A stretch of 64,000 bases of DNA from an uncultured Phycisphaerales bacterium. Lineage in GTDB: Bacteria; Planctomycetota; Phycisphaerae; Tepidisphaerales; Tepidisphaeraceae. Below, one piece after another: positions 199 to 43,121 of the stretch (position 1 is its first letter; each line of letters begins with the position of its first letter). The position numbers and the translations under genes were made by a program. The notes under the pieces are model-generated. The model did not search any database and was not told the origin of the DNA. It saw nothing but the letters and a program-made list of their open reading frames with translations. Location of the stretch: the NCBI GenBank assembly GCA_963755915.1, contig CAVWLP010000002.1, forward strand, positions 4,832,001 to 4,896,000, written 5' to 3'.

Positions 199-784
199 TT
201 ACAAATGGTCGTCGCCAATCCATGCGTAAACGCACGTGTTCCTCGGCTTCCCACCCACGGTCATGCTGTCGCACCTCATAATTCCCTCCAATTGAAAGCC
301 GGCTAATTCTGCGACGCGGCGGCTGCGCGCGTTCAGTTCGTCCACGCGAATCTGAATTCGCTTGAACTTAACCCGGTCGCGAAGCATCTGGACGAGCGCG
401 CCGACAGCCTCGGTCACAAATCCCTGCCCGGTTTTGTCGCTGCGGAGCCAATAGCCGATTTCGCAGCTGGGAATTTCCCAATCATGTGGATGTGCCCCGA
501 TCGTGCCGAGATGGTCGGGCGAGTCTTTAGCAAAGATCAGGTATGGAAGTTGTTTTCGCGTGAGAAATTCGGAAGCGGCGCGACGGCACCATTCTTCGCC
601 GGATTGCTCGTTGTATTCGTCAGTCGCCCACGGCATCCAGCGCTTGAGCTCGGGAAGTGAGTGCTGAACGGAGGGCCAGACGATCGCACCATCGCCTGCG
701 CGGCGTGCGCATTGTTAAGCGCGCACTCGAGACCTCGCTCGGAATATCCAACAAAATCGGATTGATTTTCTCGTTTCCCATCAT
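199..784 (-). CDS. GNAT family N-acetyltransferase (RimJ/RimL-like), one frameshift
   Basis: [29 protein letters not shown] motifs. The N-terminus ([20 protein letters not shown]) lies in another frame upstream of 636 and overlaps the aroF stop. Confidence 0.85.
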
Positions 785-1802
785 GCCGTCCGATCGACGG
801 CCGTCGCGATCCTTCGGATCGCCGCCATCATTTCAGTGAATTGCTTGGGCGTGATCGACTGCGCCCCATCCGTCAGCGCATGCTCCGGATCATTGTGAAC
901 CTCCACGATCAATCCATCCGCCCCGGCCGCGATCGCCGCCCGGCACATCGAATCCACCAGGTAACTCTTCCCCGTCCCCTGGCTCGGATCGATAATCACC
1001 GGCAAATGGCTCACGCGATGCAATTCCGGAACCGCCGCCAGCGCCAGCGTATTTCGCACATAATCCTCATACGTCCGAATCCCGCGCTCGCACAGCATTA
1101 CCCGTGAATTCCCCCGCGACATGATGTATTCCGCCGCGAGCAAAAATTCCTCCAGCGTCGCGCTCATCCCGCGCTTCAGCAACACCGGCTTACTCTGTTC
1201 CCCCACCGCGTTCAGCAGATTGAAATTCTGCATATTCCTCGCCCCCACTTGAAGCACGTCTGCGTACTGGCCGACCAGCCCAACCTGGTCGATCGACATC
1301 ACCTCCGTCACCACCGCCAGCCCCGTCTCCTCGCGCGCAGCGCCAGAAGCTCCAATCCCTTTTCCCCCATCCCCTGAAAGGAATACGGATTCGTCCGCGG
1401 CTTAAACGCCCCGCCCCGCAGCCCCACCGCCCCCGCTTCCTTCACCGCATGCGCAATCTCCAGCACCTGCGACTTACTCTCCACGCTGCACGGCCCCGCA
1501 ATCACCCCGACCGCAGGTCCGCCAATCTTTGCATCGATCTGTCCACCCAGGGGAACGACGGTTCGCTCCTTCTTCACCTCCCTGGAAGCCATCTTGTACG
1601 GCGCCAATATCGGCACCACCCGGTCCACTCCGGGCGCCGATTCCAGCACCGACCGATCCTTGAACCGGTCGTCCCCGATCACCGCGACAACCGTTCGTTC
1701 CTCTCCGACGATGACGTGATCTTTGAGTCCCATTTCGCGCACCAGTTGAATGACATGCTCGACCTGCTTCTGAGCCGAGCCCGGTTTCATCACCACGATC
1801 AT
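781..1802 (-). CDS. aroF: 3-deoxy-7-phosphoheptulonate (DAHP) synthase, class I-beta with N-terminal regulatory domain; frameshift near 1320
   Basis: MIVVMKPG start, [67 protein letters not shown], across ORFs 1308..1841 and 781..1314. Confidence 0.95.
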
Positions 1803-1852
1803 GCGACCTCCGCGAAAAAAGTCCCGAAAAGTTCTGGCCAAAAAAGCCCAAC

Positions 1853-1881
1853 AAAAAAACCTCAGGACTTTTGTCCTGAGG
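1853..1881 (-). terminator. attenuator terminator upstream of aroF
   Basis: On the minus strand: perfect 9-bp stem CCTCAGGAC-AAAA-GTCCTGAGG followed by T7. Confidence 0.9.
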
Positions 1882-1914
1882 CCGCCGATTTCAAACCAAT
1901 TTTATCGATGAAGC

Positions 1915-1989
1915 TCAGGACGCAATATGGGTGCGGGGATAAAAATATCCGCCAAACCAACCCCAATATCGCAGGTCCGAAGACTTCAT
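1915..1989 (-). CDS. aromatic-rich leader peptide of aroF (MKSSDLRYWGWFGGYFYPRTHIAS)
   Basis: 24-aa ORF with 7 aromatic codons in a 10-codon run. Its stop overlaps GTCCTGAG, which is complementary to the terminator 5' arm. Confidence 0.85.
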   Translation of the reverse strand: MKSSDLRYWGWFGGYFYPRTHIAS

Positions 1990-2000
1990 ACTCTTGCCCC

Positions 2001-2030
2001 AATATAGCATTTAATTAGCTCAAATGTCAA
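2001..2030 (-). promoter_or_regulatory. sigma70-type promoter for leader-aroF
   Basis: TTGACA (2030-2025), 18-bp spacer ending in TGC, then TATATT (2006-2001). Confidence 0.7.
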
Positions 2031-2108
2031 TTTTTCCCCGCGAATATCGCGGCAAGGCAGGGCCTTAGTGTACAGCCAATTGCCGGCGTGGTAATAATGA
2101 TACAGTTC

Positions 2109-2182
2109 CGGGGCGTAGCTCAGCTTGGCAGAGCGTCTGGTTTGGGACCAGAAGGCCGTAGGTTCAAATCCTATCGCCCCGA
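2109..2182 (+). tRNA. tRNA-Pro(TGG)
   Basis: Acceptor stem CGGGGCG/CGCCCCG, anticodon arm TCTGG-TTTGGGA-CCAGA, T-loop GGTTCAAATCC. CCA is not encoded. Confidence 0.97.
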
Positions 2183-2285
2183 CTTGACGAGAGGAATATC
2201 GTCCGCCGGCTTGCGTATTCGCCTCATTGCGCCATTGAGTCTTATGCAAACTTTCACGGTTCGAAGAACATCGGGAGCAGGCGTT

Positions 2286-2900: not shown

Positions 2901-4611
2901 GTGAAAGACGGCACAACCGATCTCACCGCCCAGCCCAACCTCGATGTCTCATCCGGGCAAACCACCTGGCCCCTCCGCTTTTGGCTGATCACCGCACTCA
3001 CCGGCGTCTTCGCCGGCCTTATCGGCGGCGCCCTCATGAAGTTGCTTGCCGCCCTCGAGCATCTCGCCTGGACCTACGACTCCGGAACATATCTCGAAGC
3101 GGTCACCCGTGCCTCCCCCTCCCGGCACATCCTCATGCTTCTCACCGCCGGTCTCCTCGTCGGCGTCGGCGGCGCCATCATCTCCAAAACTTTCGGCCCC
3201 GCCGGCGATGCCGAAGCCGCCGTCTGGTTTCGCTCCGGTTATCTCCCCCTGCTGTCCACCCTCGTCAAATCCGTCAATTCCATCGCCACCGTCGCCCTCG
3301 GCAGTTCCCTCGGACGAGAATCCCCCATCAAGCAGGCCGGCGGTGCCGTCGCCAGTTGGATGGCCCAGCACACCCACCTCTCCCGATCCGAGCACCGCGT
3401 TCTCGTCGCCTGCGGCATCGGCGCCGGCATGGCCGCCGCCTACAACGTCCCCGTCGGTGCCGCACTCTTCACCGTCGAAGTCCTCCTCGGAAGCATCACC
3501 CTTCGCCTCGCCCTTCCCGACTTGCTCTGCTCCGGCGTCGCCACCGCCGCTTCCTGGCTCTTCCTGCCCACCGGCCCAATCTACCGCGTCCCCGAATATC
3601 CCCTCTCCGTTCAACTCACCCTCTGGTCCCTCCTTGCCGGCCCCCTGCTCGGCCTCGCCACCATCCCCCTGGTCCGTCTCATCGGCTGGGCCGACGCCCA
3701 AAAACCGCGCCGGCGCCGCCATCTATATCGCCCCCGTCCTCCTCCTCACCCTCCTCGGCGCTCTCTCCATCGTCTATCCCCAATTACTCGGCAACGGCAA
3801 AGACGACGTCCAGCTCGCCTTCGAAGACAAGTTCGCAATCGATCTCCTCCTAATCCTCCCCGCGTTGAAACTCCTCGCAACCGCCGGCTGTCTCAGCGCC
3901 GGCGCCTCCGGCGGACTCTTCACCCCCACCATGACCATCGGTGCTCTCCTCGGCGGCCTTCTTGGCCACGCCTGGAACTCCGTCTGCCCCGGCGCATCCA
4001 TGGGCAGTTGCTCCGTGATCGGCTCCTGCGCCTTCCTTGCCGCCTCCAGTCAAGGCCCCATTTCCGCGCTCGTTCTGGTCTTGGAATTAACCCGCCACGT
4101 CGATGGAACGATGGTCCCCATGCTCATCGCCGTAGCCGGCGCAATGCTCGTAGCCCGCCGAATCGAAGCCCGGTCCATTTACTCCATCCGCTTGCATCTA
4201 CGAAAGCCAAAACCAACCTTACCCACCTCCGCACAACTCCCCGCCTTCGCCGGCACGATTTCCCCCGATTTCGCCACGATATCCTCCGCCGAGGCCTACG
4301 CGACGGTCGTTCAGCATCTCTGGCTCCGCCGCCTCAATCCCCCCGTCTACGTCTTAGACGACCACGGAAAGCTGCTCGGAAAGATCGCCCTGGAATCCCT
4401 CGACATCGGCTCCCTCGGCGCCATCCCCATCGAAGCCGCCAAAGCCGCCGACCTCGTCATCCCCGTCTCCACGCTCTCCTCCCAAATGAGCGAGACGGAA
4501 ATCGCCCACCGCCTCGCCACCGCCGCCGAGCCCGAGCTGCCCGTGGTCGATTCCGAAACGGGCCGAATGATCGGCGTCGTGCCAAACAAAAGCCCCGTCA
4601 ACGAACCGTAG
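2901..4611 (+). CDS. ClC-family chloride channel/transporter with C-terminal CBS-like region; frameshift near 3710
   Basis: LGSSLGRESP, GMAAAYNVP.GAALF..E and GASGGLFTP motifs, many TM helices, C-terminal VYVLDDHGKLLG and LPVVDSETGRMIG CBS-like motifs. Confidence 0.88.
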
Positions 4612-4619
4612 TGCCCCAG

Positions 4620-7600
4620 TCAATCCGCTGAACTAGGCCGCGTTGTTTTTTCTTCCTCACCCCGCTTCAAAATCTGCTCCCTGCATTGTTGCAGCACATC
4701 CACATACTGCTGCCGCCATGGATCGCCCGGCGGAAGAACCTCCAGGCAGTGCTGCAGGGCCTCACTCGCTTCCGTCAAACGCGTTTCACCCATCAGCGAT
4801 TCGCCCAGCCCTCCATACGCATACCCAAACGACGGATTCAGCGCAATCGCCTGCCGGAAATGATCGGTGGCGTTGTACAGCCGGCCCATTGTCATCAGGC
4901 CAAGCGCCAAGTTGTAATGTACGTCCGGCTGGTTCGGATTGATCTTCAGCGACGCTCGAAATTCTTCCACCGCCTCCTCGTTTTGCTTGGCCGCCAGAAG
5001 CCCAAGGCCCAGATTATAATGCGCATACGGATCGGCTGGATTCAGCTCGGTTGCCCTTTGCAGGTGGTCAATCGCTTCGCCTAAAGCCCCGCTCCCTTTT
5101 AGAAGCAGGCCCAGGTTATATTGCGCAGAGAAATTGTTCGGATCCAGTCGAACCGCTTCCTCAAGCTGCCCAATAGCCAAATCGCTCTTCCCCTGCTTCA
5201 TCAGCACAAGAGCCAGGTTGTAGTGTGCATCCGGCTGGTTCGGATTGATTTTCAGCGATGATTCAAATTCGGAAACGGCCTGCGGCGCTTTCCCAATGGC
5301 AACAAAAGCGAGCCCCAGGTTGTAACGGACATACGGATCGCCCGGCTCCAGCTCGCTCGCCTTTTGCAGGTGCTGAATGGCCAATTCAAATCTTCCCTCC
5401 CCTTTGAGCAGCAAACCAATGAGATAATGAGCCTGCGCCTTCTCGGGCGAAAGCTTCAGGGTCTCCTGGAACTGTTCCAGCGCCGCATCATTCTTCCCCT
5501 GGTTCATCAGCGCGACGCCGAGAATATAGTGGTCATCCGCCTCGTTCGGGTCGATCTTCAGAGCTTCCTGGAACGCAGCGACCGCCGGATCCATCTTGCC
5601 GGCCTGCATGAACGCCAGGCCGAGGTTGTAAAAGGCAGCCGCATTGGATGGATCGAGTTTCCTCGCGCGCTCCAGTTGCTCGATCGACTCGTTCAGGTTC
5701 CCCGTGCTTTTCAGCGCCAGGCCCAGGCAGTAATGCGCCTGCGAGTTGTCCGGATCGACCTTCAGCACATCCCGGAACTGCTCGATCGCCTTCTCGTTTT
5801 TCCCCTGCGTCATCAGCACCAGGCCAAGGTTGTATCGCGAATCCGAATAATTCGGATCAATCGTGAGCGCCGATTCGAAATGTTCGATCGCCCCGTCCAA
5901 CTCCCCTTTGTCCACCAGCGCCAGCGCCAGGTTGTAATTGATGGTTCGCATCGTCCGGCTCCAGGCGGGTCGACTCGGCGAGCTGCCCCACCGCCTCATC
6001 CACTCGTCCCATTTTCCGCAGCACCAGCCCGAGGCAGTAGTGGGCGTGACCCGAATCCGGATCAAGTGCGATTTCCTGCCGAAACTGCCGCTCCGCTTCG
6101 GTGAGTTGATTGTCCGCCGCCAGGGCCATTCCCAGGTTACCGATCGCAACCGTCGATCGCGGCCGAAGGGCGATCGCCGCCTGGTAGTACCGCACCGATT
6201 CCGCGCAATTGCCGCTCTTCCGCAGCGCATCCGCAAGCATGAAGTTTGCCCAGAAATCCCCGGGATAGGTCCATTGCACCCGGCGCAGAAATGCCATCGC
6301 CTCGCCGCTTGCGCCGGTGTCCTCGAGACGCTCCCCCAGGGCGGCAAGTAAGCGAACCGGCTCATGGATTGCCGTGTCGGTCTCCGCCAACTCAACCAGC
6401 TCCCCCCGGCTCACCGACGGATTCCGCACGCGATTTCGCCAGCCCGTCGGATCCGGGTCGGCCATGGATGCCACCTCGAAAATCCACTGCCGCCGATCCC
6501 CCTCCGTCGCGCAAAGCGCCCAATCGTCCAGCGCCGCGATCAGCGACGACCGATCGTTCGACGTCAGGATTCGCCCCGCGACCACCGCCGGGTCATCCCC
6601 GGCGCTGCCGATTCCGTGTTGCTGAAATGCCGCCAGATACGCCGCGTCCGCGTGCGCGTTGTCGAACAGCCGCGCAAACTGGCTCTCAACCCAGGCCGTT
6701 CGATTCAGCCCGATTGACTCCAGAAGTTGTCCGAATCTCAGGTCTCGTTCATCCCCATCCAACCGCTCATCCAGGGAGGCAACGGCATGGTTCTGCATCC
6801 GCGCATGAGCTCGATCCAATGCCGACGCCGCCAAAATCCAGTCCGATTCAGACTCCGAATCCTCCGCTTCCTGCAAATCTTCCGACACCGCTCGAACCGT
6901 TCCAGCCCGATCCGCCGCAAGCCGCAGCCCAATCCCAATCCCCGCGGCGCTCATCAGGATTGTTGCCGCAACCATCGCCGCCAGCGCCGGCCGACGCCGC
7001 GCCCACTTTCCGGCTCGCTCCACAATTCCCGCCCGTCGGGCGCTGATCGGTTCCGAACGCTCAAACCGCCCGATATCCTCCGCCATCGCCGCCGCCGAGC
7101 CGTATCGACGCTTCGGATCCTTTCTCAGGCACTGCACGCAAATCGTCTCCAGATCGCGCGGCACCCGCGCGTTCAGCCGCGACGGGCCCACCGGTTCCTC
7201 GTTCAGCAGTTGCCGAATCGTTTCCGTCGGCGATTCTCCTCGGAACGGCGGCCGTCCCGTCAGCATTTCGTAAAGGATCGCCCCCAACGCGTAAATGTCC
7301 GCCTCCGGTCCGATGTCGCTCGCCTTGCCCACCGCCTGCTCCGGCGCCATATAACTTGGCGTCCCAATGTGAACCTCGCTGTTCGACATGGTCCCCTCCC
7401 CGCCGAAACATCGCGCAAGCCCGAAATCGCTGATCTTCGGGATCCCCTCTGCCGTCAGTAGAATATTGCTCGGCTTCAGATCGCGATGCACGATCCCCGC
7501 CTCGTGTGCCGCCTGCATCGCTTCCGCCAATGTGCCGATCATCGCCGCGGCCTTCGCCGCTGGCACGGGCGCGCCGTCCAGCTTGTGCGCCAGCGTGCCT

Positions 7601-8088
7601 CCCTCCACAAACTCCATTGTGAAATAAGGCCGTCCCTCCCATTCACCCAGGTCGTGGATCTGCACGACATGAGGATGGCTCAGCCGCGCCACCGCCAGCG
7701 CTTCCCGCTGAAATCGTTTCCGTTCCGCCGCCCCCGCGAATTCGCCGGACAAGAGCATTTTTATCGCCACTGTCCGATCCAGCAGCAGATGTCGCGCCCG
7801 GTAAACCACCCCCACTCCCCCGCGCCCTTCAATCGACTTCACCTCATACCCCGGAATCTGCGGCAATCGCCTCACCTCACTCTCGACGCTCATCCTCTGA
7901 ACCTCGCTCAGTCCAAGAGCCGTCGATGGAAACAGGTCATCCAGTTGCGCCGAAATCATCCGGATTCGCCCCAAACGCAACCGAACTTCCTCAAGTTTCT
8001 CCGGGCATCCGGCGCAGACTTCTTCCGGCGCTCGTCCCGAGATCAGAATCTCCTCGACCAGTTGCGTGATCGCCGACTCGTCTTCCAT
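4620..8088 (-). CDS. Ser/Thr protein kinase with TM segment and long TPR array; frameshift near 5940
   Basis: GRGGVGVVY, VAIK, HRDLKPSN, DFG, GTPSYMAPE motifs, then a hydrophobic helix, then many 34-aa TPRs (YNLGL.L...G....A). Confidence 0.92.
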
Positions 8089-8149: not shown

Positions 8150-8791
8150 TCACATCGGCGCGGGCGGCATATTCCGCGGGGTGGGTACTATGTCCATGCC
8201 CGTCAGTTTCTCCGACAGCCGCATCACCGCCCGCGTCACCCGCCGATGCACCGTTTTTACCGACACATCCAGCAATTTCGCCGCCTCCGGCTGCGACAGC
8301 CCCTGGATCCGTACCAAGTCGAACACTTCCCGCTCTTCCTGCGGAAGCCGCTCGATCTCTTCCAGAATTCGCATCGCTTTCGGGCTCAACTGCGATGACG
8401 AACCATCCGAAGGCGCTTCCACCATCGATTCGTGATCGAGTTGCGCGCTAACTTGCTTATCTAAGCGTCGGGCAAGGTCATTCAATTCCCAACGCATATG
8501 TTGGTTCGCCAGCGCAAAGAACTCCCGCACCGTCCTCGGCTGCACTGACCTCAGCGCCTTGATCATTCGCTCCACCACCGCCCCCAGCAGTTCGTCAGGC
8601 TCAAGATTCACCGGGGGATGCAGAAGGCGGGGATACCTCCGAAAAAGCAGCGACGAGCTCAATACGTGCAGCCGGCCCACTGCCTCCGTCAACAACTGCC
8701 GAACAATCGGCTCCGCCGGAGCGTCGCCTGATGCCACGGCCAATTGATTCAGATACCTCTGCACTACGACCGTGGTGCCATCGTCCGGCAT
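8150..8791 (-). CDS. ECF-type RNA polymerase sigma factor (kinase-associated)
   Basis: Region-4 pattern LPQEEREVFDL..IQGLSQPEAAKLLDVSVKTVHRR and region-2 FFALANQHMRWELNDLAR. Lies directly upstream of the kinase. Confidence 0.88.
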   Translation of the reverse strand: MPDDGTTVVVQRYLNQLAVASGDAPAEPIVRQLLTEAVGRLHVLSSSLLFRRYPRLLHPPVNLEPDELLGAVVERMIKALRSVQPRTVREFFALANQHMRWELNDLARRLDKQVSAQLDHESMVEAPSDGSSSQLSPKAMRILEEIERLPQEEREVFDLVRIQGLSQPEAAKLLDVSVKTVHRRVTRAVMRLSEKLTGMDIVPTPRNMPPAPM

Positions 8792-9506
8792 GAGATTTGC
8801 ATAATACTGCCGCCCCCAGAGCAATGCCAACCTGACGAAAATCCCTCCATAATTCCAGCTTATCCTGAAGTGAATGCGTGCCTCGACCTCTCCTCACCGT
8901 GCTCGCACCCGCTGAATAACTCCCTCACCCCTTCAAAATCCCCTCCTCAATACCCCTCCGCGGCGCGTTGGCGACGAACTGAACCAACGGAGACCAGGTT
9001 ACCACGTTCGACCGCTGAGGGTCTTCTTTCCGCGATTCGGGATTTTTTCCAGCGAAATCCACGCTGGGAATGACCCCCTGTCCTTTAGATTTTGCCTATC
9101 CCCACAGGTATCCCCGCTTGGGGATACCCCCTGTTTTCATTTGAGCCTTGCGCTACAAAGGTTTCCGGCTGATTTATTGTCTCTCGCACCCCCCGACAGC
9201 CGTCCTTTTTCTCTGTCGGAACCGCCTCACTCACGTTCATCGGTTCCTCTCGCTCACGCTCGGAGAAAAAGTCCGGCTCCTCGTCCCCCTCACGGGGGAC
9301 TCGGTTGGTGCTTCACAGCACCGCAACGGGTTTCTCGACACGATCTCTGGGAGGGGAGAGGAACCAACCGACAGAGGGCTTCGCCCTCACCGAACGGGTT
9401 AAGGAGGACGAGGGGGACACCAAATAGGGGATGCTCGTCCATGGGCATCTCTGGCGCAGGACTCGCAACTGCCGTATCATGACCGCAGACTCATCGAAAG
9501 GAACAC

Positions 9507-10610: not shown

Positions 10611-12456
10611 ATGACGACCGAATTAAAGCCCCATATTAGCCCCGGCGATTTGCTGCGCCGTCCGCTCCTCAAAATCCCCGAAGCGTTTCTGCCCAAATCC
10701 ATCGTCTGCTTTCGCGAAGGGTACGGCCGCGCGTTTTTCTTCAATGACATCGCCGCCGGGATTACCGTCGCGATCGTGGCTCTGCCGCTTTCGCTGGCGC
10801 TGGCCATCGGAAGCGGGGTTCGGCCGGAACAGGGACTTTTCACCGCGATTATCGCCGGGTTCCTCATTTCGCTGCTTGGCGGAAGCCGGGTTCAGATCGG
10901 CGGGCCGGCCGGCGCCTTCATGGCCATCGTGGCCGCGATCGTCGCCCGCGACGGCTATGAAGGACTCTGCATCGCCACGCTCATGGCCGGGGTCATTCTG
11001 ATCCTCATGGGACTTGCCAAGCTCGGCACACTGGTCAAATTCATCCCCTATCCCGTCACCACGGGCTTCACCACCGGAATCGCGGTCATCATCTTCACCT
11101 CCCAAGTTCGCGACCTCTCGGCCTGACCATCAACTATATCAATGCCAAAGGCGTTCTCGTCCACAATCCCCCATCAGCTTTCCTCTCCGGCTGGCAGGTG
11201 CTGCTGCAATCGATGCATACGATCAACATGGCTTGCCACGGCCATTGGCATCGGATCGCTTGTGGTGCTCGCCGGCTTGCGCCGATTCGTCCCGCGCATT
11301 CCTGGCGCCATTGTCGTTGTCGTTCTTGTCGCGGCAACGCTGGCAGCGTCACTGCATCTCGACGTCGACCCATCGCCCCACGGCGGCATCGAAACTCTCG
11401 GCACGCGCTTTGGCGGAATCCCCAGCATGCTTTCCCCGGCCTCATCTGCCCATCAAAATCTCAAGCTGGAATGACGTCCCGCGCGTCTGGAACACGATGG
11501 TTGAGCTGATTCCTGAAGCAACGACCCTGGCGGTTCTGTGCGCGGTTGAATCGCTGCTGTGCGCAGTGGTGGCCGATGGAATGATTGGCGGCCGTCATAA
11601 AAGCAACTGCGAACTGGTCGCCCAGGGAATCGCCAACATCGGCTCGATCATCTTCGGCGGCATCCCCGCAACCGGCGTGATCGCACGCACAGCCGCCAAC
11701 GTCAAAAGCGGCGGCCGCACGCCTCTCGCCGGGATGGTACATTCCGCCACCCTGCTGGTTCTCATGCTTCTGCTCGCGCCCGTACGCCAGCCAGATTCCT
11801 CTCGCCGCTCTGGCGGCGATTCTGATGATGGTCGCCTGGAACATGGCGGAATTCGGCCACTTCCGATCCATCTTCCGAGCCCCCGCGCCGATATGCTGGT
11901 GCTGCTGACAACCTTCGGCCTCACCGTGCTGACCGATCTCACCAAAGGAGTAGGCATCGGGAATGATTCTTCGCCTCCATGCTGTTCATGAAGCGGATGA
12001 GCGGAGGTCTCCAACGTCGGCGTCAGTCCGCGATGAGCTCGACGAGACCGGACTCCGGCTTCCCGGAACTGAAAGACCCCAACGCCATCGTTCTTCGCGA
12101 TGTGCCGCCCGGCGTGGAAGTTTACGAGATCAACGGCCCATTCTTTTTCGGCGTCGCCGATCGGCTCAAGGACACGCTTCGCGGCCTTGAGCGCCCGCCC
12201 AGGATTTTCATCCTGCGAATGCGGCACGTTCCCGCCATCGACGCCACCGGAATGCACGCGCTGGATGAATTCCATGATAAATGCCGCCGAAGGGGCAACG
12301 CGTCTTCTGCTTTCCGGCGTACACGCGCAGCCGATGTTTGCCATGACGCAGTACGGCCTGGTCGACCGCATCGGCGAGGAAAATATGTTCGGTAATATCG
12401 ACGAGGCCCTGGAAGGCGCCCGACGGATCGTTTCCGGCCCCCAAGCGCACAAATAG
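10611..12456 (+). CDS. SulP/SLC26 family anion or dicarboxylate transporter with STAS domain; several frameshifts
   Basis: [62 protein letters not shown], and STAS motif [15 protein letters not shown]. Confidence 0.93.
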
Positions 12457-21946: not shown

Positions 21947-22325
21947 GTGTACGAACAACCTTCGAAGAACACCAATCCCAGCGACTTGTTTATCGGCGAA
22001 TTGCAGATTTCCCGCAAGATTTGCGTCAAAATTACCCTCGACGATTCGATCGGAGGTGAATCACCAATGAGCTTATCCCCAAACCGCAAAGCCACCGCAT
22101 GGCCATCCGGTGGGTTCATCCGACCCTTCCTCTTCATCGAACGTATAACTTAAGCCGATATACCGGCAACTGGCCACCCCAACGCCTTTCACCAGGCGGG
22201 CCTGCGTTGATATGGGTTCGGCTTGATTATAGGGACTACCCCGCGCTGCTTTTTAATCGCTGCGTCTCGCGGCGATTACGGTGAGGGGTCGGCACTCAAC
22301 CCTGCCGGCCATCTAGGAGATGGAC

Positions 22326-24851
22326 ATGTTTGAACGTTTCACGGATCGGGCCCGCAAGGTCATGGCGCTGGCCAATCAGGAGGCCCAGCGCTTCAACCAC
22401 GAATACATCGGCACCGAGCACATCCTGCTCGGTCTCGTCAAAGAAGGCAGCGGCGTCGGCGCGAACGTCCTTAAGAATCTCGACGTCGACCTCCGCAAGG
22501 TTCGCCTCGAAGTCGAAAAGCTCGTCAAGAGCGGCCCGGACATGGTCACCATGGGCAAATTGCCCCAGACCCCCAGGGCCAAAAAGGTTATCGAATATGC
22601 CATCGAAGAAGCCAGGAACCTGAATCATAATTACGTAGGCACGGAACATCTGTTGCTCGGCCTGCTTCGTGAGCACGACGGCGTAGCGGCCCAGGTCTTA
22701 ATGAATCTGGGTCTGAAGTTGGAAGAAGTTCGGGAAGAGGTTCTCAATCTTTTGGGAGCTGGTGTGGAAAGCGAAGAACCCCAAGCACAGGAAAAACAAG
22801 GACAGAACCGCAAGAGCAAAACTCCGGCGCTGGACAGCTTCGGCCGCGATCTGACCGAACTTGCCCGCGAAGGGCAGCTCGACCCGGTCATCGGCCGAAG
22901 AAAGAAATCGAACGGGTCATCCAGATTCTCTGCCGCCGGCAGAAGAACAACCCCGTTCTGCTCGGCGAAGCGGGCGTCGGCAAGACCGCCATCGTCGAAG
23001 GCCTCGCCCAGATGGTCATCTCCAGCGCCGTCCCCGAACTGCTGCACGACCGCCGGATCGTCGTGCTCGATCTGGCCATGATGGTCGCCGGCACGAAATA
23101 CCGCGGGCAGTTCGAAGAGCGCATCAAGGCGGTCATGAACGAAGTCCGCCGGGCCAAGAACGTCATCCTCTTCATCGACGAGATTGCACACGCTCGTCGG
23201 TGCCGGCGGCGCTGAAGGCGCCATCGACGCCAGCAACGTGCTCAAGCCCGCACTTTCCCGCGGCGAGATTCAGTGCATCGGCGCAACCACCTTCGATGAA
23301 TACCGCAAATACATCGAAAAAGACGCCGCCCTGGCCCGGCGATTCCAGCCGATCACGGTCGATCCGCCCAGCACCGACCGACACCGTCGAAATTCTCAAG
23401 GGCCTGCGCGACCGTTACGAAGCCCACCACCGCGTCCAGATTCTCGATTCGGCCCTGGCGGCCGCCGTCGAGCTTTCCGACCGTTACATCACCGGCCGCT
23501 GCCTGCCCGACAAGGCCATCGACGTCCTCGACGAAGCCGGCGCTCGCATTCGTCTGCGCAGCATGACCAAGCCGCCGAATCTCGCCGAGATCGAAGAGCA
23601 GATCGAGCGGCTGAGCATTCAGAAGGACGAAGCCGTCCGCAACGCGGAATACGAAGAAGCCGCCAAGCTTCGCGACACCGCCGAAGGCCTCCGCGCCAAG
23701 AAAGAAGAAATGCAGCGGCAGTGGCGCGAAGCGCCAAGGAAGTGGACGGCGTCGTCGATGAAGAAGTCATCGCCGAGGTCGTCAGCAAGATGACCGGCGT
23801 TCCGCTCACCCGCCTGGAAAAAGAAGAAGCCCAGCGGCTGCTCGAGCTGGAAAACGAACTCCACAAGCGCGTGGTCTCCCAGGACGAAGCGATCAAGGCG
23901 ATCAGCAAAACGATTCGCCGCGCCCGCTCCGGCCTGAAAGACCCGCATCGCCCCATGGGCTCGTTCCTGTTCCTCGGCCCCTCCGGCGTCGGCAAGACGC
24001 TGCTCTCCAAGGCCCTCGCCGAATTCATGTTCGGCGACGAAGATGCGCTCGTGCAGATCGACATGAGCGAGTACATGGAGAAGCACAACGTCAGCCGACT
24101 CATCGGCGCGCCTCCGGGCTACGTCGGCTACGAAGAAGGCGGCCAGCTCACCGAGCGAATCCGCCGCCGGCCTTACAGCGTCGTCCTCCTCGACGAAGTC
24201 GAAAAGGCCCACCCCGACGTGTTCAACATGCTCCTGCAGATCATGGAAGAAGGCCGGCTCACCGACAGCTTTGGCCGGCACGTCGATTTCCGCAACGTGG
24301 TCCTGATCATGACCAGCAACATCGGCGCGGAACTGATCAAAGACGGCGGCCCGCAGTTCGGCCTCCAGCCCAGCCGCAAGGGCGAAAAGGAAGAGCGCAC
24401 GTATCAGACGATCAAGACGACCTTGACCAAGGAAATCGAGCGCTACTTCCGCCCCGAATTCATCGGCCGCCTCGACGATGTCATCGTCTTCCGCCCGCTG
24501 AGCCGGGTCAATCTGGAAACCATCGTGGAGTTCGAGCTGAACAAGGTTACCAAGCGCCTCACCGAGCACGGCGTTAAGATCGAGATGACGCACGAAGCGA
24601 AGGATTTCCTGATCGACAAGGGAACCAGCAGCGACTTCGGCGCTCGACCCCTCCGCCGTGCGATCGAGCAGCACGTGGAAGACCCCCTCAGCGAGGAGAT
24701 CCTCCGCGGCAGCTTTAAAGGCAAGGACCTGGTTCGCATCAGCGTCAAGGCCGAAGAAGTCGGCGAGAAGCACCTCTACTTCGAGGCGTTCAACACGAAC
24801 GAGGAAAAAGGCGAGAAGCCCCTGGCCGAAGCCTCTTCCGATGCGACTTGA
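22326..24851 (+). CDS. clpC: ATP-dependent Clp protease ATP-binding subunit ClpC; frameshifts
   Basis: [16 protein letters not shown], two Clp-N repeats, GEAGVGKT and GPSGVGKT Walker A motifs, UVR-like coil, [24 protein letters not shown]. Confidence 0.96.
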
Positions 24852-34791: not shown

Positions 34792-38578
<3,787 letters not shown>

Positions 38579-38680
38579 ATGCCTGGACAGGATCTAGTCG
38601 TGACCGTGTGATTATTTGTAAAACGATGCAGAATCGCGGACGGCAAGATGTCCGTGGCTTATTGAAAGAAAGAAGATACC

Positions 38681-43121
<4,441 letters not shown>

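Follow-up and report, generated by a model that had tools for sequence, protein, structure and literature searches.

The 64,000-nt stretch of DNA examined here (hereafter the window) comes from an uncultured Phycisphaerales bacterium (assembly GCA_963755915.1, contig CAVWLP010000002.1, positions 4,832,001 to 4,896,000). Directly upstream of aroF, the gene for 3-deoxy-D-arabino-heptulosonate 7-phosphate (DAHP) synthase, it carries what is probably a ribosome-mediated leader-peptide transcription attenuator of that gene; we put the probability of this reading at roughly 0.8. A first-pass annotation, which was made from the letters of the window without database searches, had read the region as a ribosome-dependent attenuator that responds to tryptophan, tyrosine and phenylalanine. 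The ribosome-dependent part of that proposal is now supported by the recurrence of the arrangement in related DAHP synthase loci, by compensatory changes in the terminator and by the geometry of the predicted folds. All coordinates are positions within the window, and all the elements of the attenuator lie on its minus strand.

The anatomy described in the first-pass annotation, namely: a promoter, a 24-codon open reading frame (ORF), a hairpin followed by seven T residues, a repeat that lies over the stop codon of the ORF, and aroF, was confirmed in full (Table 1). The leader promoter (2030-2001) matches 11 of the 12 consensus positions in a sigma-70-type scan and is one of two promoter-like sites found in 1500-2500; the same scan finds no other site between it and aroF, positions 1853-1802 included. 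Codons 8-17 of the leader ORF encode Y W G W F G G Y F Y, i.e. three Tyr, two Trp and two Phe, or seven aromatic residues in ten. The core of the terminator consists of CCTCAGGAC (1881-1873), an AAAA loop and GTCCTGAGG (1868-1860), which together form 9 bp, and the stem reaches 11 pairs (1883-1858) if two G-U pairs are counted. Finally, the word GTCCTGAG (1921-1914), which spans the TGA, repeats 8 nt of the terminator 3′ arm exactly; it occurs three times in the window when both strands are searched, each time within this element.

A scan of both strands of the window for terminator-like hairpins with at least five T residues returned nine of them, and the aroF leader hairpin is the most stable (-17.8 kcal/mol). 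Judging from this low number, classical intrinsic terminators seem to be rare in this genome.

Related loci were gathered through a scan of species-representative genomes with an alignment of close homologues, which gave at least 80 DAHP synthase loci among the matches listed. The window's own order is thinly sampled, with about eight Phycisphaerae loci among these matches. The first-pass annotation had proposed looking upstream of the DAHP synthase genes of relatives for a short aromatic ORF; we did so in the 300 nt upstream of each DAHP synthase start, accepting ORFs of 10-50 codons with at least five W, Y or F per 12 residues. Such an ORF is present in 39 of the 77 listed loci that could be tested (the other three of the 80 have too little upstream sequence), compared to 1-3% in the controls, namely: 1/77 reverse complements, 13/385 dinucleotide shuffles and 14/717 random windows of the same loci.

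The aromatic ORF and the terminator also occur together. For this comparison we used a looser ORF cut-off (4 of 12 residues aromatic) and defined a strong terminator as a hairpin of ≤ -14 kcal/mol with a T run. At this cut-off an aromatic ORF is found in 48 of the 80 listed loci, and a strong terminator follows it in 41 of the 48. Among the 32 listed loci without the ORF just three have a strong terminator, one of which has a truncated upstream region. The complete element, consisting of the ORF, a strong terminator and the DAHP synthase gene, is thus present in 41/80 listed loci. The distance from the ORF stop to the terminator ranges from 14 to 76 nt (18-42 nt in all but two loci), and that from the terminator to the DAHP synthase gene from 24 to 157 nt. 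Sorted by record title, 26 of the complete elements come from loci with a Planctomycetota lineage label (out of 40 such loci), nine from Acidobacteriota lineages, one each from Gemmatimonadales, Anaerolineales and Candidatus Aquilonibacter (Vulcanimicrobiota), and three that are unclassified. The 41 complete listed loci and the window make up the set of 42 leaders to which the counts below refer.

Outside the aromatic cluster, the leader peptides cannot be aligned across clades. Within clades, the closest relative of the window, L001, has the same ORF with one substitution. The Planctomycetia-type leaders (L012, L017, L019, L020, L021, L023 and L024) share a conserved tail resembling ...SPPGRGAGGG and lie ~130-220 nt upstream of the gene. 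The Acidobacteriota-type leaders (L040, L042, L045, L047, L049, L051, L055, L057, L058, L071, L072 and L080) begin with MTRF(T/S), followed by a second aromatic cluster. Of these, L058 carries the label Candidatus Aquilonibacter (Vulcanimicrobiota), an assignment that would be explained by a mislabelled bin or by transfer.

Comparative support for the helices was obtained from an alignment (A2) of seven sequences of the window's clade, i.e. the window and six relatives. The terminator is paired in 97.4% of 77 cells, six of its pairs have changed on both sides, and none of 500 shuffles equals it. For the antiterminator, 87.5% of 56 cells are paired, vs. 25-46% when the partner is slid along, two pairs are compensatory, and 6/500 shuffles reach the paired fraction. 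In addition, we tested at each locus, independently of any alignment, how well the sequence that follows the aromatic cluster pairs with the 5′ arm of the terminator at that locus, using 300 shuffles each. A pairing of ≤ -10 kcal/mol is found in 40/42 loci, and it beats the shuffles at p ≤ 0.05 in 21/42 and at p ≤ 0.01 in 9/42. The pairing strand lies at least partly within -15 to +13 of the stop in 28/42 loci, and in the window, L001, L002 and L007 the strand that pairs best runs across the stop codon. L003 and L004 have the same conserved block in the clade alignment, but the free search picked another site in them. In many Planctomycetia the strand is located 13-27 nt before the stop, within the conserved ...PGRGAGGG tail, and in Acidobacteriota 25-50 nt before it. 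Since the conserved part of the Planctomycetia-type tail coincides with the RNA segment complementary to the terminator 5′ arm (GCCCCGAGA...), this tail is probably selected as RNA and not as peptide. Over the whole set, a stalled ribosome gives higher sequestration of the arm than a ribosome located at the stop in 28/42 loci (Wilcoxon p = 0.0006).

We also analyzed the folding of the leader in the window. At equilibrium, the full leader forms a long hairpin and the terminator (z = -3.75 vs. shuffles); in the minimum free energy folds, the long hairpin is formed by the 5′-terminal 20 nt of the ORF and the stop region (1924-1908). The antiterminator, which pairs 1921-1914 with 1880-1873, has eight Watson-Crick pairs and -11.0 kcal/mol, and the terminator alone has -18.9 kcal/mol. 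Shuffles of the stop region match its pairing with the terminator 5′ arm at p = 0.017. We dropped a procedure in which the whole leader was folded to equilibrium with the footprint of a ribosome at each codon in turn, because the terminator always forms and such folds cannot discriminate. In a model of co-transcriptional folding, the RNA ends at the terminator 5′ arm and the -15 to +13 nt around each A-site codon are blocked. Here, the antiterminator forms with a probability of 0.91-0.96 if the A site holds any of codons 1-19, which include all seven aromatic codons; the value falls to 0.40 for codon 20 and to 0.00 for codon 21 and all later positions up to the stop. These values reproduce the geometry proposed in the first-pass annotation, in which a stall on the aromatic codons frees the antiterminator and a ribosome at the stop blocks it. 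The same annotation had described two structures. The terminator and the antiterminator stand, but the predicted helix between regions 1 and 2 (Table 1) had been missed; this helix, as suggested by the folds, would bring the element nearer to the classical three-hairpin design. A long-range pairing similar to helix 1:2 is found in five of the seven clade members, with differing sequences, and a role of this helix as anti-antiterminator is suggested with moderate support.

Table 1. Features of the aroF leader region in the window.
Feature	Position	Strand	Basis or detail
-35 hexamer TTGACA	2025..2030	-	promoter scan; part of site 2030..2001
-10 hexamer TATATT, TG immediately 5′	2001..2006	-	18-nt spacer from -35
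Leader ORF, 24 codons + TGA, MKSSDLRYWGWFGGYFYPRTHIAS	1915..1989	-	ATG 1989-1987, TGA 1917-1915
Putative regulatory codons 8-17: TAT TGG GGT TGG TTT GGC GGA TAT TTT TAT	1939..1968	-	codon list
Region 1, 5′ end of ORF (candidate anti-antiterminator, possibly pause hairpin)	1970..1989	-	predicted pairing with 1908-1924
Region 2, core GTCCTGAG at 1914-1921 spanning the stop codon	1908..1924	-	predicted to pair with region 1 or with the terminator 5′ arm (= antiterminator)
Region 3, terminator 5′ arm GGCCTCAGGAC	1873..1883	-	hairpin scan and folding
Region 4, terminator 3′ arm GTCCTGAGGTT	1858..1868	-	loop AAAA at 1869-1872
T7 run of intrinsic terminator	1853..1859	-	sequence and hairpin scan
GGAGG ribosome-binding site of aroF	1807..1811	-	read from sequence; 4 nt before ATG at 1802
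aroF, type I-beta DAHP synthase with N-terminal ferredoxin-like regulatory domain	781..1802	-	Pfam PF18152 + PF00793; homologue alignment

The mechanism that we propose is based on the elements themselves, their recurrence and co-occurrence in relatives, the covariation of the terminator, the weaker covariation of the antiterminator, and the folding geometry. Transcription would start a few nt before the leader ATG, and the ribosome would load on a very short or absent 5′ untranslated region (UTR). When charged tRNA-Trp, tRNA-Tyr and tRNA-Phe are plentiful, the ribosome would reach the TGA and cover GTCCTGAG, leaving the terminator 5′ arm free to pair with the 3′ arm, and RNA polymerase would stop at the T7 run (about 1853). 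A ribosome stalled on the aromatic codons 8-17, i.e. 24-51 nt before the stop, would melt the region 1:2 helix and expose GTCCTGAG. The exposed strand would then capture the freshly made 5′ arm (1880-1873) before the 3′ arm is made, and transcription would read through into aroF. In the case of no translation at all, region 1 would hold region 2 and the terminator would form. Translation of the ORF, termination at the T run, the kinetic order of folding and the identity of the regulating amino acids are all steps that we infer within this model.

Several observations weigh against the attenuator reading. The full element is missing from 39 of the 80 listed loci. The antiterminator covariation comes from seven sequences and the structure was derived from one of them, which favours fit; among its eight pairs there are two mismatches in L004 and one in L007. 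When a fixed 50-nt upstream region is used for all loci, the pairing exceeds that of 24 ordinary terminators of the same loci by a small amount (median z of -0.89 vs. 0.06, p = 0.035), partly because many antiterminator strands sit further upstream. Helix 1:2 is absent in L003 and shifted in L004, and its z-scores in the seven clade members are -2.08 (the window, 1884-1989), -1.24, -0.70, +0.49, -1.92, -2.38 and -0.83. In the full-length RNA, the terminator has an equilibrium probability of 0.91-0.96 at any ribosome position. Blocking one or another part of the ORF leaves the terminator as the stronger structure, so that any switch has to work kinetically, like that of known attenuators, and the attenuation model would depend on kinetics throughout. 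Untranslated RNA that ends at the 5′ arm also favours the antiterminator (0.94), such that the region 1:2 helix would need kinetic trapping for termination to be the default. In the window itself, arm sequestration differs little between a stall (0.87) and the stop (0.74); this measure is crude, and for the window it includes weak pairings with the 5′ end. Lastly, the assembly contains many indel errors (see below).

With regard to the start of translation, the first-pass annotation had suggested that the leader may be nearly leaderless, which is plausible. In the window, 11 nt separate the -10 hexamer from the leader ATG, giving a 5′ UTR of perhaps 4-5 nt and thus no space for a Shine-Dalgarno sequence. 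Of the 42 leaders, 13 have a NANNNT hexamer that ends exactly 7 nt before an in-frame start, vs. about 3-4 at other distances, and in 10/42 loci there is also a -35-like hexamer 16-19 nt further upstream. This 7-nt peak points to truly leaderless leader ORFs in many of the relatives. Leaderless leader ORFs are reported for actinobacterial attenuators in passages of PMC8079986 on Streptomyces lividans. All six relatives in alignment A2 have a -35 hexamer of the TTGAC type, with its columns shifted in several rows. A 31-codon in-frame ORF beginning at the ATG at 2010 was considered as the leader and rejected, since this ATG falls within the -10 region and L001 lacks it.

On the other side of the leader promoter, and divergent from it at a distance of ~80 nt, is a tRNA-Pro(TGG) gene at 2109-2183 (+), with a promoter-like site at 2069-2098 (+). 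A divergent tRNA gene is found at the same position in L001 and L002.

The choice of codons in the leaders is distinct from that of genes. All five Tyr and Phe codons of the window leader are of the minor, T-ending type; in the window's genes, TAC is used 73 times vs. 48 for TAT, and TTC 117 times vs. 54 for TTT. Over the 42 leaders, TTT makes up 75% of the Phe codons and TAT 49% of the Tyr codons, compared to 23% and 19%, respectively, over codons 1-150 of the DAHP synthase genes next to them. Minor T-ending codons would sharpen stalling; an AT-rich non-coding composition could also contribute to this bias.

The explanation that competes best with three-way sensing keeps the attenuator but drops the OR gate: one or two amino acids, e.g. 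Phe, would be limiting, and the other aromatic codons would be structural or inherited. Corynebacterium glutamicum provides a precedent, since in its aroR leader (F-Y-F) Phe limitation raised read-through and Tyr availability had no effect, according to the passages of PMC11802643 that describe it. Phe is also dominant in the aromatic clusters of the 42 leaders (F 140, Y 74, W 50), and 6/42 leaders lack W or Y. Set against this, W, a rare residue, is found in 38/42 leaders, Y in 40 and F in all 42, and 36 have all three. TGG TTT and the T that precedes it are among the few invariant leader-ORF columns of the clade alignment, and the window leader has two Trp, three Tyr and two Phe codons, all of them located 24 nt or more upstream of the stop codon. 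That so rare a codon as that of Trp is present in nearly every leader speaks for a role of Trp in the regulation. Sensing by one or two amino acids is possible, rather than probable, in our judgement; OR-gate sensing of all three, as proposed in the first-pass annotation, is a putative property of the element.

A second explanation is that the ORF and its terminator form a stand-alone small gene or small RNA, and that aroF is driven by a promoter that a consensus scan does not see. Promoters of Planctomycetota are poorly characterised and our scan was limited to sigma-70-type sites; moreover, small hydrophobic peptides rich in aromatic residues can function as membrane peptides. Against a gene of this sort, the ORF and terminator stay directly upstream of DAHP synthase in several labelled phyla, the peptide is unconserved beyond the aromatic cluster, the stop region is complementary to a terminator arm, and 1853-1802 holds no promoter-like site. 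We therefore consider a stand-alone gene very unlikely.

The terminator could also be controlled by an RNA-binding protein, a tRNA-sensing T-box, a riboswitch or a nascent-peptide arrest responding to a free amino acid, with the codon content being secondary. Such systems regulate aromatic pathway genes in other bacteria; in Firmicutes, TRAP and T-boxes control aromatic genes. Switches from T-box to leader peptide are mentioned in PMC2965389. Control of this type is likewise very unlikely, as no leader or T-box family of Rfam matches 1500-2500 even at E ≤ 10, none of the Rfam 15 families covers the element, tRNA alone passes the Rfam gathering scores in 15 related loci, the leader peptides are too variable for an arrest peptide, and no repeated protein-binding triplets were seen by eye. 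Rfam holds the attenuator-related families under the names Trp_leader, Phe_leader and T-box.

The ribosome-mediated attenuator would control a gene that is split in the present assembly. One G is missing near 1337/1338 according to the alignment to homologues, which divides aroF into ORFs at 1308-1841 and 781-1314. The first of these, at 1308-1802, contains PF18152 (the DAHP synthase ferredoxin-like domain) and the beginning of PF00793, and the second (781-1314) contains the remainder of PF00793. The homologues are single proteins of 340 aa, many of them labelled Tepidisphaeraceae (Planctomycetota, Phycisphaerae), to which the N-terminal half of aroF is 77-93% identical; the homologue with 93% identity (94% in BLASTP) is an unbroken protein of 340 aa. 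Other genes of the window are broken in the same manner, namely: rpoB and rpoC (34932-42990, +), each in at least four ORF pieces, clpB (22320-24851), a SulP permease gene (10611-11991) and the neighbouring ClC channel gene (2901-4631), in addition to aroF (781-1802). The GNAT acetyltransferase gene downstream of aroF (199-784) is probably split as well, judging by frame reading alone, and its N-terminal piece (620-784) has no Pfam match. As essential genes cannot all be pseudogenes, the assembly probably has frequent single-base indels, and the aroF frameshift is most likely an assembly error. A pseudogene was rejected as first choice for aroF, given that rpoB, rpoC, clpB and the SulP and ClC genes are also split and that a close homologue is intact. 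The indels also mean that the lengths of homopolymers in the leader, e.g. the T7 run, are approximate only.

Elsewhere in the window, a gene for a Ser/Thr protein kinase with C-terminal tetratricopeptide (TPR) repeats (5857-8088, -) overlaps a TPR-rich ORF (4620-6395, -), and the pair adjoins a gene for an extracytoplasmic function (ECF)-type sigma factor (8150-8830, -). The kinase gene and the TPR-rich ORF may be one gene split by an indel.

The kind of attenuator that we describe is already known: trpL, pheL, the ilv leaders and, closest of all, aroR-aroF of C. glutamicum belong to it, and aromatic codons before a DAHP synthase gene are not new. The source study of the aroR-aroF attenuator is reportedly Neshat et al. 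2014 (J Biotechnol 190:55). Leaders of multivalent attenuators of the ilv type mix Ile, Leu and Val codons; the window element resembles them in that codons for several end products of a shared pathway are mixed in one leader, and differs from them in its pathway and in its unrelated sequence. An ilvBNC leader is mentioned in passages of PMC4046766 and PMC8079986. In aroR-aroF, as outlined in parts of PMC11802643 and PMC4046766, a leader ORF with aromatic codons precedes the DAHP synthase gene and stalling raises read-through. The window shares with it the short aromatic leader ORF upstream of a DAHP synthase gene. The two differ in that aroR, compared here through its published description, is an actinobacterial leader with F-Y-F and no Trp, whereas the window leader has all three residues. 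In contrast to aroR, the relatives of the window element are found in loci labelled Planctomycetota, Acidobacteriota, Gemmatimonadales, Anaerolineales and Vulcanimicrobiota.

Similarities to trpL and pheL of Escherichia coli include leader codons that specify the product of the pathway, an antiterminator and a terminator that exclude each other, and possibly the 1:2 helix, following the Yanofsky model as presented in the relevant passages of PMC11802643. In both cases the terminator is more stable than the antiterminator and the choice is kinetic. As differences, trpL and pheL each sense one amino acid, control a terminal branch instead of the first step common to the aromatic pathways, and have a leader with a normal Shine-Dalgarno sequence. 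The Merino database of putative attenuators (2005) contains entries before aromatic operons, e.g. aroAI-beta > tyrA of Thermus thermophilus (PMC1173090, Table 7), and these are similar to the window element in having predicted terminator/antiterminator pairs before type I-beta DAHP synthase genes. In the passages on these entries, unlike for the window element, no leader peptide is described and neither Planctomycetota nor Acidobacteriota is named. A full-text literature search, with several relevant subscription papers outside its reach, returned no description of the element in Planctomycetes or Acidobacteria.

The element looks like a member of an undescribed attenuator family that extends across Planctomycetota, Acidobacteriota and others. 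More specifically, and with somewhat less than even confidence, we propose a large undescribed family in which Trp, Tyr and Phe codons are mixed in one leader, often leaderless, that guards DAHP synthases of type I-beta with a ferredoxin-like domain across Planctomycetota, Acidobacteriota, Gemmatimonadota and their neighbours.

The mechanism itself is textbook, and the understanding of attenuation is unchanged by it. Gene regulation in Planctomycetota and Acidobacteriota, on the other hand, is almost uncharted. If the large family proposed above is real, its members would be the first leader-peptide attenuators to be documented in the phyla over which it extends, and the supply of three amino acids would be integrated by one RNA switch where the shikimate pathway begins. 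The recurrent aromatic leader would constitute a regulatory RNA family ready for annotation in these phyla and a compact natural sensor of aromatic amino acid supply that may be used for engineering. It further suggests that transcription and translation are coupled in these phyla and that leaderless translation serves regulation in these groups.

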